Below are positions 32,799 through 57,869 of a stretch of 64,000 nt of DNA, in pieces; the first letter of the stretch is position 1; every line of letters starts with the position of its first letter. The stretch covers positions 53,754 through 117,753 of the forward strand of contig JAWLBL010000027.1 of assembly GCA_041687695.1 (NCBI GenBank). The letters are read 5' to 3'. The position numbers were made by a program, and so were the translations under genes. The DNA comes from Myxococcota bacterium (lineage in GTDB: Bacteria; Myxococcota_A; UBA9042; PHBI01; JAWLBL01). The notes beneath the pieces were generated by a model that searched no databases, was not told the origin of the DNA, and was given only the letters and a program-made list of their open reading frames with translations.

Positions 32799-32844
32799 GA
32801 CCGACCCCACGACCCAAATCTGCGCCGCCAGCTTCCCAAGCAAG

Positions 32845-33245
32845 GAGCCCGCGCGAGCGCGGGCGTTCCAGCTTCCCCAACCAAGGAGCCCGCGCGAGCG
32901 CGGGCACTCCAGCTTCGCCAACCCATGAGCCCGCGCGAGCGCGGGCACTCCTAGCGGCGGAGAGCTGCAACCTGGTGGCGCGAAAGCCCGCGCGAGCGCG
33001 GGCACTCCAGCTTCGCCAACCCATGAGCCCGCGCGAGCGCGGGCACTCCTAGCGGCGGAGAGCTGCAACCTGGTGGCGCGAAAGCCCGCGCGAGCGCGGG
33101 CACTCCAGCTTCGCCAACCCATGAGCCCGCGCGAGCGCGGGCGCTCCTAGCGGCGGAGAGCTGCAACCTGGTGGCGCGAAAGCCCGCGCGAGCGCGGGCG
33201 CTCCAGCTTCGTCACCCCAAGAGCCCGCGCGAGCGCGGGCACTCC
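32845..33245. repeat. REP/BIME-like array: 9 copies of a GCCCGCG-CGAG-CGCGGGC hairpin
   Basis: Copies at about 32845, 32886, 32927, 32984, 33025, 33082, 33123, 33180 and 33221 (spacing 41,41,57,41,57,41,57,41); 98-bp higher-order unit. Confidence 0.9.
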
Positions 33246-33399
33246 AACCGGCGGAGAGCCTTGGCCTCTCACTCCGCGGTCTTCGGTTCGCCACGGCCAC
33301 GCTCTCGGCATCCTCGTCGCTCCCGAAACGCAAGAGGCCGAGCCCCCAAGTGGGACCCGGCCTCGGTGCGGACGGACCGTCCAGACGCCGCGCGGCGGC

Positions 33400-53658: not shown

Positions 53659-56169
53659 ATGAAGCTCTCGCGAATGCTGTTCGACTCCGCCCGCCGCGGC
53701 GCCCTGTTCGGCGCCGGGCTGGCCCTCATGGCCGCCGGCTGCGACGGCGCGGCCACCCCCGCCGACGCCGAGGCCGGCGGGACCCTCACCGGCGCCCTGA
53801 CCGCCGAGACGGCCGCCTCGGGCGAGGCGCGCACCGTCACCCTCGACCGCGTGGCCGAGGGCGGCTCGCTCGTGGTCGTCGCGGAGGCCGAGATCCAGGC
53901 CGACGGGCGCTTCACCTTCGAGGGCGTCCCCGCCTTCGACGGGCCCGCGCTGCTGCAGGCCCGCTCGGACGCCTCGGCCCAGGCCGTGGCGCAGGTCATC
54001 GTGCCGGCCGCTCCGGACGCTGGCGAGGCGATCGCGAGCGCCCCGATGAGCGCCGAGACCAGCGCCGAGGCCCAGGCGCTGCTGACCCTGACCGCCGCCG
54101 GCGTCGCGGCCGGCGACGTCGACACCATCGCCCTGATGGCCTTCGTCAGCGCCGAGATGGCCGCCCACGCCGACGCTCACGCCCTGGGCCGAGCCGCTCA
54201 CGCGGCGTCGCGCGCCTATCGTGGCGCCGCGGCGCGGGTCGAAGGCCAGGCCGAGGCCAGCGCCCGCGCCATGGTCGAGGCCCGCGCCGAGGCCTGGGCC
54301 CAGCTGGCCGCCCGGCTGCAGGCCGCCCGCAGCGAGTGGGCCGCGCGCGACGCCTGGGCCGCCTTCCACGCCGAGGCCCAGGCCGCCGTCAGCGCCGAGC
54401 TGGGCGTCGACGCGGCCGCCCAGGCCACCGCCACCGCCGCCGCCGCCTGGGCCCTGGCCGCCGAGGCCAAGGGGCAGGCCTTCGCCGAGGCCGCCGCCGC
54501 CCACGGCGTCGCGCTGACCGGCCACGCCGAGCTGGCCGCCCAGCTCGAGGCGGCCGCCCAGGCCGGCGCCGACAGCGAGGCCCGGACCGAGCTGCGCGCC
54601 GCCTTCGAGGCGTACTTCGCGGCGCTGGCGACCGCCGGTGAGCTGGAGGCGGTGGCCGAGGCGCGGGCGCGGCTGAAGGCGCGCTTGACCGGCGAGGTCG
54701 AGGGCGAGGCCGGGCTGCTGAGCGAGCTGGTGGGTCAGGCCGCGGGCGCCGTCGAGGTCGCCCTGGAGGCGGCCGCTCAGGCGCGCGCGGGCTTCGAGGC
54801 CAGCCTGGCCGAGGCCGAGGCCAAGGCCGATCGAGCGGCCGCCGCCGCCGAGGCCTGGGCCCAGCTGGACGCCGAGCTGCGGGCCGCCGTCGCGGGCGCC
54901 GGCGAGCTGTCGGCCGGCCAGGTGACGCAGCTGGCGCTGGCCGCGCAGGGGGGCGCCGAGGCGACCCTGGCCCTGCACGACGTCAGCGTGCCCGACGACC
55001 CGCCGGCCGCGCCCACCCAGTCGCTGCATGGCTTCATCGAGGCCACCGTCGATGGCGCGGCCGGGGCCGAGGCGCTGGTCGCCGAGGCGCGCGCCGACGC
55101 CGACGCCCGCCTGCGGAGCGCCGCCAAGGCGCGGATCGTCGTGGTCGACGCGGCCGGCGCGGCCCAGGTCGTCGCGGCCGGCGCGGTCGACGCCACGACC
55201 GGCGTCTTCACGGTGCCGTCGGCGCCCGAGCGGCAGGACGCGCTGACCGTGCTCGAGCTGGTCGACGCCCAGGGGCAGGTCGTCGGCGCGGCCGTCATCG
55301 AGGCGGGCCTGACCGGCGAGGGCGCCGTGGCGCTGCCCCCGGTGACGCTGACCAGCACCGCCGAGGCGCGCGTGCTGCTCGAGGCGGTGGTGCTGGGCGG
55401 CGTCGACCCGGCCAGCGTCGACCGGGCGCTGATCGAGGCGCTGATCGACGGCCCCGCGGCGGTCGCCATGGCGGCCGAGGGCAGCTACGAGGCGGCCGCC
55501 GAGGCCTTCCTGGCCGCTCAGGGGGCGCGTGACGAGGCCGGGATCGGGGCCGAGGGGCGGGCGACCGCCATCGCGACGGCGGCCTTCGAGGCGACGCTGG
55601 CGGCGCGGGCCGGGGCGGACGCCCTGACGACGCGGGTCGCCGACGCGCGTGGGCAGCTGGTGAACGCGGCCGCGTTCGCGGCGACGGCGAAGGCCGAGGC
55701 CGACGGCGACTTCGCGGCGGGGGTCGAGGCCGCCTACGAGGCGCTCGTGACCGCCACGGCCGAGGCCGGGTCGCAGGCCGAGGTGCACGCGGCGGGCGCG
55801 GCCTGGGTCGCCGCGGTGATGGGCGACGGCGAGCTGACGCTGGACACGACGGCGGCCCTCGAGGCGTGGGTGACCGCCGCGTTCGGGGCCGACCTGGGGG
55901 TGCGGGCGGCGATCGAGCAGGCGATGCAAGGCGCCACGACCGCGAGCGCCGCGTGGGCCGCGCAGGTCCGGGCGGCCGCCGAGGCGTCGGCGACGGGTGG
56001 CGCGGAGGCGTCGGCGCAGGCGATCGCCGCGGCGTGGAGCGCCTTCGAGGCCGCGGCCAGCGCCGAGGCCAGCCTGATGGCGACGGGGTCCGTCTCGGCC
56101 GCCGAAGCGGCCCTGCTCAGCGAGCTGCTGATCCAGATGCAGGGCGGCCTGTACGCCACCGCCCTCTGA
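53659..56169 (+). CDS. Large Ala-rich lipoprotein with an internal two-fold repeat
   Basis: AGGAGG RBS; MAAGC lipobox; two beta-rich modules, each followed by long Ala/Glu helices. Confidence 0.8.
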   Translation: MKLSRMLFDSARRGALFGAGLALMAAGCDGAATPADAEAGGTLTGALTAETAASGEARTVTLDRVAEGGSLVVVAEAEIQADGRFTFEGVPAFDGPALLQARSDASAQAVAQVIVPAAPDAGEAIASAPMSAETSAEAQALLTLTAAGVAAGDVDTIALMAFVSAEMAAHADAHALGRAAHAASRAYRGAAARVEGQAEASARAMVEARAEAWAQLAARLQAARSEWAARDAWAAFHAEAQAAVSAELGVDAAAQATATAAAAWALAAEAKGQAFAEAAAAHGVALTGHAELAAQLEAAAQAGADSEARTELRAAFEAYFAALATAGELEAVAEARARLKARLTGEVEGEAGLLSELVGQAAGAVEVALEAAAQARAGFEASLAEAEAKADRAAAAAEAWAQLDAELRAAVAGAGELSAGQVTQLALAAQGGAEATLALHDVSVPDDPPAAPTQSLHGFIEATVDGAAGAEALVAEARADADARLRSAAKARIVVVDAAGAAQVVAAGAVDATTGVFTVPSAPERQDALTVLELVDAQGQVVGAAVIEAGLTGEGAVALPPVTLTSTAEARVLLEAVVLGGVDPASVDRALIEALIDGPAAVAMAAEGSYEAAAEAFLAAQGARDEAGIGAEGRATAIATAAFEATLAARAGADALTTRVADARGQLVNAAAFAATAKAEADGDFAAGVEAAYEALVTATAEAGSQAEVHAAGAAWVAAVMGDGELTLDTTAALEAWVTAAFGADLGVRAAIEQAMQGATTASAAWAAQVRAAAEASATGGAEASAQAIAAAWSAFEAAASAEASLMATGSVSAAEAALLSELLIQMQGGLYATAL

Positions 56170-56228
56170 CGCGAGCCCGAGCGCCATCCTGGAGCCCCGT
56201 CGACCACAAGGCCGGCGGGGCTCCGGCG

Positions 56229-56446
56229 CAGGGTCATCGCAAAGTCCGTCGAGCGTTGCGCGCAGCGAGCTGCGCGGGCCCTCGAGCCCCAGCGAGCTGG
56301 GGCAGTCCGTCAACACTCGCCGCCACGAATCCACCGCGGAGTCCGACGACCGGACTGCACGAGCTCGCTCGTGCTCCGGCGTAGCGCGGCTCGCCGCGCT
56401 GAATGCGAGGCGTGGCGAGCCCATTGGCGACTTTGCGACCGCCCTG
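56229..56446. mobile_element. 218-bp MITE-like element with 18-bp TIRs and a 10-bp target-site duplication
   Basis: Ends CAGGGTCATCGCAAAGTC / GACTTTGCGACCGCCCTG (15/18 complementary), flanked by GGCTCCGGCG at 56219-56228 and 56447-56456. Confidence 0.8.
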
Positions 56447-56543
56447 GGCTCCGGCGTTCCCGACGGCCGCCGGTGGCGTTCGGAATGGACGCGAGCCCGC
56501 GCGTCCCCGAGGATGGCGCCTCCCTCCGATCTGCAGCGGCGCC

Positions 56544-57869
56544 ATGCTCACCTCCCTGGTCATCATCTTCTGCCTCATCCTGCTCAACGGCGTCTTCGCC
56601 GGCGCCGAGATCGCCATCGTCTCGGTCCGCAAGAGCCGCCTCGACGAGCTCGCCGAGCAGGGCAAGCGCCGCGCGCACGCCGTCCAGCGCCTGCGCCGCG
56701 ATCCGGACCGCTTCTTCGCCAGCGTCCAGATCGGCATCACCGTCGTCGGCGCCTCCGCCGCCGCCCTCGGCGGCTCGGACATCGCCGAGCAGCTCGCGCC
56801 CCGGCTCCGTGACCTCGGCCTGGGGGACTCGGCCGAAGGCGTGGCCCTCGGCGTCGTGGTCGCGGGCATCTCCTACCTCTCCCTGGTCCTCGGCGAGCTG
56901 GTGCCCAAGTCGCTCGGCCTGCGCTACGCCGAAGCCTACGCGATGATCATCGGCCCTCCCCTGCTCGGCCTCGCCAAGCTGGCCAAGCCGATCGTCTGGC
57001 TCCTCACGGCCAGCTCGAACCTGGTCCTGCGCGTCTTCGGCGACAAGACCACCTTCAGCGAGGCCCGCATGTCCGCCGAGGAGCTGCAGCACCTGGTCGA
57101 GAGCGCCGCGCGCCAGGGCTCGGTCGAGGTCCACACGGGCGAGATCGCCTCGCGCGCCCTCGACCTCGAGGCGGTCCCGGTGGCCGCGGTCATGGTCCCG
57201 CGCGGCCGCATGGTGTGCATCGACCGCAACGCCCCCAAGGACGCGACCGTCGCCATCGCCATCGAGGCCGGCCACTCGCGCCTGCCCGTCAAGGACGGCG
57301 GCGTCGAGAACATCGTCGGCTACGTGCTCGCCAAGGACGTCCTGGCGCTGACCTGCGGCCCCGAGCCGTTCAACGTCGACCCCATCGTGCGCGAGGCCTG
57401 GTTCGTCCCCGAGACCATGCGCAGCCTGGACGCCCTGCGCGCCATGCAGCGCCGCCGCCTCAAGCTCGCCGTCGTCGTCGACGAGCGGGGCTCGGTGGCC
57501 GGCCTCGTCACCGCCGAGGATCTGGTCGAGGAGCTGGTCGGCGAGATCGTCAGCGAGCACGAGCTGCCCCTCGAGCTGGTGCGCAGCGACGACGACGGCG
57601 CCTACGTCGTCCCGGGCGGCGCGCCGATCCGCGACATCAACCGCGCGACCCCGCTCGACCTCCCCGAGGGCGAGGGCTACTCGACCGTGGCCGGGCTCAT
57701 CCTGGCCCGCATCGGCCACATCCCCGCGGCGGGCGAGGGCGTCGACCTGTCCGACGGCACGCGCCTCGAGGTGCTCGAGGCGTCGCCGCGTCGCATCGCC
57801 TCCGTGCGCATCGTGCCGCCCGACGAGCCGCCCGACCTCGCCCCCGGCGGGGGACACGCCCCCGGCTGA
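56544..57869 (+). CDS. Hemolysin/CNNM family protein (DUF21 + CBS pair + CorC_HlyC)
   Basis: NGVFAGAEIA, VQIGIT, GELVPKS, VMVPR, HSRLPV, VVVDERG...GLVT.EDLVEELVGEI, YSTVAG. Confidence 0.93.
   Translation: MLTSLVIIFCLILLNGVFAGAEIAIVSVRKSRLDELAEQGKRRAHAVQRLRRDPDRFFASVQIGITVVGASAAALGGSDIAEQLAPRLRDLGLGDSAEGVALGVVVAGISYLSLVLGELVPKSLGLRYAEAYAMIIGPPLLGLAKLAKPIVWLLTASSNLVLRVFGDKTTFSEARMSAEELQHLVESAARQGSVEVHTGEIASRALDLEAVPVAAVMVPRGRMVCIDRNAPKDATVAIAIEAGHSRLPVKDGGVENIVGYVLAKDVLALTCGPEPFNVDPIVREAWFVPETMRSLDALRAMQRRRLKLAVVVDERGSVAGLVTAEDLVEELVGEIVSEHELPLELVRSDDDGAYVVPGGAPIRDINRATPLDLPEGEGYSTVAGLILARIGHIPAAGEGVDLSDGTRLEVLEASPRRIASVRIVPPDEPPDLAPGGGHAPG

Follow-up and report, generated by a model that had tools for sequence, protein, structure and literature searches.

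The window analysed here, a 64,000-nucleotide stretch of contig JAWLBL010000027.1 from the draft genome of a Myxococcota bacterium (assembly GCA_041687695.1), contains two groups of short hairpins: one inside a 218-bp MITE (miniature inverted-repeat transposable element), delimited by repeat alignment at positions 56229-56446, and one in a tandem array at 32828-33259. In our reading, these hairpins are probably repetitive extragenic palindromes (REPs) of one design, which a clade of REP-associated tyrosine transposases (RAYTs) would recognise. The MITE begins and ends with 18-bp imperfect terminal inverted repeats (56229-56246, CAGGGTCATCGCAAAGTC, and 56429-56446) and is bracketed by the left and right copies of a 10-bp target-site duplication, GGCTCCGGCG, at 56219-56228 and 56447-56456, respectively. 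Its interior carries two inverted REP units (a REP doublet), and the four hairpins that the first-pass annotation had placed there are all present, each with a perfect 7-bp stem and a 4-nt loop, and in the symmetric layout it had described, with CGAG on the top strand in the left two and on the bottom strand in the right two. The left unit comprises, on the + strand, (i) an untagged perfect hairpin, CGCGCAG-CGAG-CTGCGCG (56259-56276), whose stem occurs 32 times in the genome with a CGAG loop, and (ii) a tagged hairpin, GCCCCAG-CGAG-CTGGGGC, which together with its tail AGTCC (56304-56308) occupies 56286-56308 and whose stem has 10 genome copies; read on the - strand, this hairpin presents a GGACT tag, a stem, a CTCG loop, and a stem. 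The right unit lies on the + strand in tag-strand orientation and comprises (i) the tag GGACT (56352-56356) followed by the perfect hairpin GCACGAG-CTCG-CTCGTGC (together 56352-56374), with the commonest CGAG-type stem of the genome (53 perfect copies), and (ii) the untagged hairpin AGCGCGG-CTCG-CCGCGCT (56383-56400, + strand; 14 genome copies). When folded as single-stranded DNA, 56229-56446 is predicted to form all four hairpins (-71.8 kcal/mol, z = -4.5), and none of 200 shuffles folds as well as the native sequence.

The array at 32828-33259 (+ strand), delimited from the sequence and by Tandem Repeats Finder, is a tandem cluster of nine REP hairpins, GCCCGCG-CGAG-CGCGGGC, whose shared geometry with those of the MITE the first-pass annotation had noted; all nine lie on the + strand between 32847 and 33240. 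Six of the nine are followed by ACTCC and three by GTTCC or GCTCC, and Tandem Repeats Finder assigns the array periods of 41 (3.0 copies) and 98 (3.8 copies). A transcription-terminator reading of the window hairpins was rejected, because no T-run was seen after them (judged by eye; no scan was run). Further, an Rfam scan of 55900-56800 at E ≤ 1 returned no family, its sole match, Ms_AS-8, scoring 19.8 bits against a gathering score of 48.

To place these hairpins in their genomic context, the whole assembly (a 7.97-Mb draft of 73% GC in 63 contigs, denoted C below) was scanned for perfect hairpins with a 7-bp stem and a 4-nt loop. Among the 2359 found, the loops CAAG (300), CTTG (293), CTCG (143), and CGAG (137) stand far above the next loop (43); summed over both strands, CGAG/CTCG accounts for 280 hairpins and CAAG/CTTG for 593, or 873 in all against an expectation of ∼65. 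This expectation comes from five genomes simulated with a third-order Markov model, which held 48-61 CGAG plus CTCG hairpins (∼55) and 9-12 CAAG plus CTTG hairpins (∼10). The first-pass annotation had allowed that CGAG loops might be no commoner than others given the high GC content; CGAG loops are in fact enriched ∼5-fold, and CAAG loops ∼60-fold. Chance may account for ∼50 of the 280 CGAG hairpins, a figure that agrees with the 33 stems occurring only once or twice. Searching instead for the conserved tag (see below) and loop at the right spacing gave 776 sites: 415 with perfect stems, 31 with a single mismatch, and 13 with two mismatches, the remainder forming a background hump centred on five mismatches, as for a control tag. 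Apart from the 873 REP-type hairpins, the genome holds ∼1490 perfect hairpins of this geometry versus ∼2240 with the same loops in the Markov simulations, a depletion of about one-third that coding constraints might explain.

On the tag strand, the design reads GGA[GC]T, a perfect 7-bp stem beginning with GC, the loop CT[CT]G, and the return stem. Among 1923 loop-oriented candidates with at most one stem mismatch, the tail is ACTCC in 364 and AGTCC in 82, giving 446 tagged hairpins; in the set of 873 perfect hairpins, GGAGT directly precedes the stem 344 times and GGACT 71 times. The loop is CT[CT]G in 415 of the 429 tagged perfect hairpins with 4-nt loops, and the second loop base on the tag strand is T in 427 of the 429. 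A second, untagged C-R-A-G hairpin lies upstream of 394 of the 446 tagged hairpins, at a distance of 7-10 nt (23 nt in four cases), and the usual unit in this genome is a pair of tandem hairpins of ∼50 bp with the same loop in both. While loop and tail are constant, the stems are not: 13 distinct perfect stems occur in the tagged hairpin and 11 in the untagged one, pairs 3, 5, 6, and 7 of the tagged stem each take two to four Watson-Crick types, and stem subfamilies differ at up to four of the seven pairs, always by compensated changes.

This design alters the first-pass description in several respects. That description had a fixed stem length and loop combined with a free stem sequence; variable, compensated stems are indeed found genome-wide, but the two basal pairs (G-C and C-G) and pair 4 are nearly invariant. 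The closing pair, described there as fixed, varies: 335 of the 446 tagged hairpins have G-C and 108 have C-G. The loop CGAG is enriched, as discussed above, but it is the minor form of a C-R-A-G loop, in which CAAG, missed in that annotation, is twice as common. Because both loops occur on the same stems (GCACGAG with 46 CGAG and 9 CAAG copies; GGCGCAG with 28 and 137, respectively), we treat CGAG and CAAG hairpins as one system. Nor are the repeat families unrelated, as had been supposed, since they have in common the A[CG]TCC tail (the complement of the overlooked tag), the two basal stem pairs, and the two-hairpin unit with its 7-10 nt linker; by these sequence characters they are best regarded as subfamilies of one REP design. 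A GNRA-type loop in a shifted register (GCGA or GCAA) was also considered and rejected, because by inspection the remaining arms are unpaired in that register.

The hairpins are largely extragenic, which bears out the intergenic enrichment that had been proposed as a check. Using a crude, GC3-based gene prediction (that is, one based on GC content at third codon positions; 4142 open reading frames [ORFs] covering 74% of the genome), only 35 of the 446 tagged hairpins fall inside predicted genes versus the 74% background, whereas in a comparison set of one-mismatch, untagged, solitary, chance-like hairpins 711 of 965 do so. Spacers between convergent genes make up 62 of the 139 REP-bearing spacers versus 611 of all 3025, and those between divergent genes 21 of 139 versus 659 of 3025; in spacers between tandem genes, the hairpins show no preference for the sense or the antisense orientation (61 versus 55). 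Inverted arrangements are seen in the units within the MITE and in four-hairpin elements of the CAAG type, and tandem clusters occur as well. With more than 100 copies, an extragenic location, inverted doublets and clusters, and copies inverted around a RAYT gene, these repeats have the features by which REPs are defined. The CAAG-type four-hairpin elements also lie at several contig ends (for example, C6:56-307, C5:324518-324772, and C3:359750-360045) and beside N-runs on C1 and C2, and the repeats appear to be a cause of assembly breaks.

We next turn to the RAYT genes of this genome. Searches for Y1-type genes found 11 with PF01797 and 13 with NF047646; four of the latter, on contigs C47, C26, C15, and C54, score above the NF047646 RAYT cut-off (80 bits), and nine are weaker Y1-like genes, several of these loci being within a few hundred bases of a contig end. 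The C26 RAYT is a 199-aa ORF scoring 104.1 bits on NF047646 (REP_Tyr_transpos), with a PF01797 match, and its best solved relative is Escherichia coli TnpA-REP (PDB 4ER8; E = 8e-5), to whose sequence H81-Y82-H83 and Y142, invariant in an alignment of six RAYTs, can be aligned. Its paralogues (C47:165-575, C15:152183-152578, and C54:416-808), all above the same cut-off, are 47-52% identical to the C26 protein, and two of them are close to the end of their contig, at 165 bp (C47) and 416 bp (C54). In a RAYT tree, the four group together (Shimodaira-Hasegawa-like approximate likelihood-ratio support, 90) on long branches.

Among the four, only the C26 gene is flanked by C-R-A-G hairpins. Upstream of it are four GGAGT-tagged units, three with perfect GCCCTCG-CTCG-CGAGGGC hairpins and one an imperfect copy, and downstream are inverted units with ACTCC or GCTCC tails and the gene-strand loops CGAG, CCAG, and CTAG. 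The unit of the window array, including its spacer agctt[ct]gccaacc, resembles these flanking REPs, whose stem (GCCCTCG/CGAGGGC) departs from that of the array at a single compensated pair; on sequence grounds, the array at 32828-33259 belongs to the subfamily found around the C26 RAYT gene and forms a tandem cluster of its REPs. The C54 RAYT, in turn, is flanked by GGAGT-GCTCGGC-CCATG-GCCGAGC hairpins (C54:1-230). CCATG constitutes a third class of loop. Its tag is that of the CT[CT]G class, and across the genome it is represented by 33 tagged copies with no fewer than four recurrent stems. The CTTG subfamily was found beside neither the C47 nor the C54 RAYT, the C47 flanks holding none and the C54 flanks being of the CCATG type. 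Downstream of the C15 RAYT (C15:152690-152900), short palindromes are preceded by CCATAG or CCACAG (for example, CATAG-CGCC-TTCG-GCGCG), and these possibly represent a fourth family of REPs, whose tag would resemble GTAG.

The same design also accompanies RAYT genes in other genomes. The window's genome is alone in its family among the 60 genomes of the same order or class that were scanned as relatives. The pattern GC-N4-G-CRAG-C-N4-GC-ASTCC has 335 matches in the window's genome (one for the reversed control) and 83 in a genome of the same class but another family (G053), and it is frequent only in these two. G053 holds 85 hairpins of the design, with stems other than those of the window's genome (GCGCAAG, GCGGCAG, and GCGGTAG), a CAAG loop, and an ACTCC tail, arranged in tail-to-tail pairs (e.g., L048 1501-1620); the same three stems recur in a metagenome-assembled genome titled Acidimicrobiia (G061). 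Among the 60 relatives, the best E-value of any RAYT against our protein query (P0001) was 3e-25, and, as a positive control, other RAYTs in these relatives (L057 and L058) are flanked by classical GTAG-tagged hairpins. In a species-level genome collection, the nearest RAYT, 45% identical to that of C26, resides in G061, where it has on one side GGAGT-GCGGGAG-CTTG-CTCCCGC followed by another CTTG hairpin and on the opposite side an inverted unit ending in CAAG-CTCCCGC-ACTCC; this genome has 17 pattern matches versus two for the control. A RAYT of 39% identity keeps the GGAGT tag with the loop TACA.

Further, an alignment-based scan of metagenome contigs returned at least 536 RAYT relatives among the first 600 pattern matches, and the loci of the best 80 (42-55% identity) were examined. 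Perfect hairpins tagged with GGA[GC]T lie within 1.2 kb of the gene at 72 of these 80 loci, which range from 36 to 68% GC; several loci have both GGACT and GGAGT tags beside one gene. The 229 hairpins comprise 31 different stems, with a CT[CT]G core in 147 of them, and their loops are CTTG (76), G-CTTG-A (26), G-CTCG-A (23), CTCG (11), TCTTG (10), and minor classes. With respect to the gene, 73 are upstream on the + strand, 65 downstream on the -, 47 downstream on the +, and 43 upstream on the -. Two-hairpin units are not the rule at these loci: the tagged hairpin is followed by another with a CT[CT]G loop in 34 of the 229 cases. On a tree of 86 RAYTs, the loop class changes 12 times versus a shuffled mean of 20, with none of 500 shuffles as low, and one clade of 12 rows has non-CT[CT]G loops only.

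A repeat design that exceeds chance, is extragenic, and is physically associated with RAYT genes in several genomes is most readily explained if the hairpins are REPs of one design that form the recognition signal of a RAYT clade, with the MITE as a separate element and the array as a REP cluster; we put the probability of this explanation at roughly 0.8. The RAYT, a single-strand HUH/Y1 nuclease of the TnpA-REP type, would bind the folded single strand, cut it, and spread it, reading the tag and the loop while requiring a perfect stem of no particular sequence. As the stem sequence would not be read, stems could drift by compensated changes and found new subfamilies, whereas loop, tag, and stem length would stay fixed. 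The first-pass suggestion of a structure-specific signal thereby survives as one of structure plus loop, for which, among the recognisers it listed, an HUH nuclease is the most likely, given a RAYT gene flanked by inverted hairpins here and hairpins of like design around related RAYTs elsewhere.

Precedent for such recognition comes from group-3 TnpA-REP of Stenotrophomonas and Marinomonas, as described in the portion of Corneloup et al. 2021 (PMC8266576) considered here. There, (i) cleavage requires both the 5' tag and single positions within the loop; (ii) in the same short, perfect REPs, swapping the stem for its complement has a mild effect, whereas a stem mismatch nearly abolishes cleavage; and (iii) the first and last loop bases of the Marinomonas REP appear to pair, which parallels the C...G loop ends of the hairpins here. 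In E. coli REPs, according to the same source, the loop is only structural. Because of the Stenotrophomonas and Marinomonas cleavage data, a constant loop, tag, and stem length combined with free but perfect stems is the footprint that would be expected of such a RAYT.

Several observations weigh against this explanation. Within the genome, the C26 RAYT is flanked by one subfamily only (CTCG/CTAG/CTGG-loop units), and neither the commonest CTTG subfamilies (293 tagged copies) nor the GGACT-tagged subfamily of the MITE adjoins any RAYT in the assembly. The tag is not the canonical GT[AG]G, and the extragenic figures depend on the crude gene calls described above. Elsewhere, no RAYT was found in G053 (95% complete, 270 contigs) despite its 85 hairpins, eight of the 80 metagenomic RAYT loci lack a tagged hairpin, and loops of other types occur at 23 of the 76 loci that were scored. 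The clustering of loop classes on the RAYT tree can come from kinship alone and is therefore supporting evidence rather than proof, and RAYT recognition in this clade is argued by precedent from other TnpA-REP.

Among the alternatives, a read-out by a host factor (a nucleoid protein, a gyrase-type DNA binder, an RNA-level factor, or a 3'-end stabiliser), with the RAYT association being secondary, fares best, although we consider it improbable. It would account for the enrichment of the hairpins between convergent genes, at 3' ends, and for the 85 copies kept by G053, where no RAYT was detected, and REPs have been proposed, in the portions of the literature covered here, to stabilise mRNA, to terminate transcription, and to bind host factors. 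Against it, the hairpins are neither biased in orientation within tandem-gene spacers, which also disfavours the RNA-binding factor named in the first-pass annotation, nor followed by a T-run, nor matched in Rfam at 55900-56800; moreover, in distant genomes the design accompanies one and the same RAYT clade, which a host-specific factor leaves unexplained. A host-factor role is nevertheless compatible with recognition by a RAYT and does not exclude it.

Slightly less probable still is that the constant loop and tail merely reflect the shared ancestry of all subfamilies, in which case the loop would be read by nothing and would simply not yet have mutated. The unit architecture and basal GC pairs common to the subfamilies fit such a history, as do the near-identical copies within each subfamily, by which many copies may represent few events. 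Under this history, however, one would not expect stems to have changed at up to four of seven pairs, with compensation, while 415 of 429 hairpins keep CT[CT]G, nor the same loop and tag to occur with other stems beside RAYTs that are only 42-55% identical, at loci of 36-68% GC. Finally, it is very unlikely that the hairpins are internal to the MITE family and spread only with it via a DDE transposase, their likeness to the array being coincidental, for although the MITE is real and mobile in type (terminal inverted repeats, and perfect 10-bp duplications in all seven paired copies), there are 14 MITE copies versus 53 perfect GCACGAG hairpins and 446 tagged hairpins, the two-hairpin module occurs at dozens of sites and in tandem arrays without MITE ends, and no CAGGG ends are found at the array or the RAYT flanks.

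Compared with known systems, the hairpins are a variant of one of them, the REP/RAYT system. In the portion of Quentin et al. 2018 (PMC6006769) considered here, canonical REPs have GT[AG]G at 0-2 nt from the stem, with atypical structures noted for some subclasses; a single genome may contain several RAYTs, each paired with a REP family of its own; and the RAYT gene is flanked by its own inverted REPs. The hairpins here depart from the tag, as GTAG or GTGG at 0-2 nt 5' of the stem is replaced by GGAGT or GGACT. They resemble the group-3 REPtrons of Stenotrophomonas maltophilia, Marinomonas, and Pseudomonas fluorescens in being short, perfect extragenic palindromes present in hundreds of copies, in inverted doublets and clusters, with inverted REPs flanking the RAYT, and they have in common with P. 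fluorescens REPs the CTTG loop (PMC6006769 supplement, in the part considered); they differ in the GGA[GC]T tag directly at the stem foot and in the unit of two tandem same-loop hairpins. With the E. coli REPs, organised in bacterial interspersed mosaic elements (BIMEs), and their TnpA-REP (4ER8), the likeness lies in extragenic palindromes arranged in mosaics and in an HUH/Y1 nuclease acting on folded single strands. E. coli REPs, however, are longer and imperfect, with a required bulge, whereas the hairpins here have perfect stems and are constant in the loop; the RAYT here is likewise only distantly similar to E. coli TnpA-REP (E = 8e-5), and its alignment with 4ER8 suggests that the positions of the GTAG-contacting residues, as given in the portion of PMC6006769 considered, read differently in this protein.

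The GTAG- and CGTC-tagged repeats of Di Nocera et al. 2013 (PMC3733652) likewise form REP superfamilies distinguished by a short terminal tag beside a variable palindrome, but neither tag fits the hairpins here. The REPs of the Chloroflexus aurantiacus RAYT (ABY36092.1) resemble the C54 CCATG hairpins in their GGAGTG/GGCGTG foot, 7-bp stem, and CCATG-type centre, whereas in the part of the PMC6006769 supplement considered they form a single table row under subclass 2.2, with no CT[CT]G loop or two-hairpin unit noted, and we found no account of them as a class. Parts of the design, namely the Chloroflexus foot and centre and the P. fluorescens CTTG loop, are therefore already tabulated. We found no description of a GGA[GC]T/CT[CT]G REP class. 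The main text of PMC3733652 contains neither GGAGT nor ACTCC, and that of Nunvar 2010 (PMC2817692) lacks GGAGT, the supplements of both lying outside this comparison. A full-text query for GGAGTGC with "repetitive extragenic" returned only an irrelevant Aeromonas typing paper, and a prior listing in supplements is possible.

We tentatively suggest, as a proposition that may well prove wrong, that GGA[GC]T/CT[CT]G marks a large REP/RAYT clade undescribed as a class, spread across distant soil and sediment lineages, in which the four RAYT paralogues of the present genome keep the tag and differ in the loop (CTCG at C26 and CCATG at C54), and one of whose REP doublets is carried within a MITE. 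If so, the paralogues would offer a natural series for the evolution of loop specificity in a single-strand nuclease after gene duplication, and the DDE-type MITE would give RAYT-dependent REPs a second, RAYT-independent route of spreading. Because a single genome combines four RAYT paralogues with three or more loop classes, a few oligonucleotides would suffice to test specificity. Annotation pipelines keyed on GT[AG]G would miss the non-canonical GGA[GC]T tag, and the nesting of REP units in an unrelated MITE matters wherever repeat families serve to infer which enzyme moved what. The puzzle of a fixed loop with free stems, from which this analysis began, would be explained by a known mechanism.

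The MITE itself was correctly labelled in the first-pass annotation, as it has its own terminal inverted repeats and target duplication. Its copies, 14 including that of the window (82-100% identity), align from CAGGGTCATCGCAAAGTC to GACTTTGCGACCGCCCTG, and their similarity ends exactly there; all seven copies with paired ends have the same ends and a perfect 10-bp target duplication, every duplication being a different sequence. The end pattern, CAGGG...TCGCAAAGTC, and the duplication recall the ISAs1 family, whose hallmarks, in the portion of PMC11946415 considered here, are inverted repeats of 14-22 bp beginning with CAGGG and a 10-bp direct repeat. The MITE has such CAGGG inverted ends (18 bp) and a 10-bp duplication, but it differs in its length of 218 bp, in having no transposase, and in its interior, which is a REP doublet. 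In the assembly, a 63-contig draft in which absence is not established, no match to the ISAs1 transposase models NF033564 or PF13808 was found, and no pair of MITE-type terminal inverted repeats lies less than 4 kb apart except at MITE-sized distances, as would be required of an autonomous partner. Judged by its ends, the MITE is a separate, ISAs1-like element of the DDE type that encloses a REP doublet. The link that had been drawn between MITE and array consequently holds for the common hairpin design, but it runs only through the REP doublet that the MITE carries, the ends being of the DDE type; the two-hairpin module of ∼51 bp occurs at dozens of sites without MITE ends, including tandem arrays on C58, C34, and C25.

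In the window, the MITE lies between an ORF ending at 56169 and a gene for a CNNM/CorC-type transporter. The upstream ORF (53659-56169, 836 aa) has no Pfam match at E ≤ 0.001. Directly after its stop, a 15-nt imperfect inverted repeat (GGAGCCCCGTCGACC / GGCCGGCGGGGCTCC, with a 4-nt gap) occupies 56191-56224, and, since this repeat extends into the target duplication, the MITE appears to have inserted at the foot of a pre-existing hairpin.

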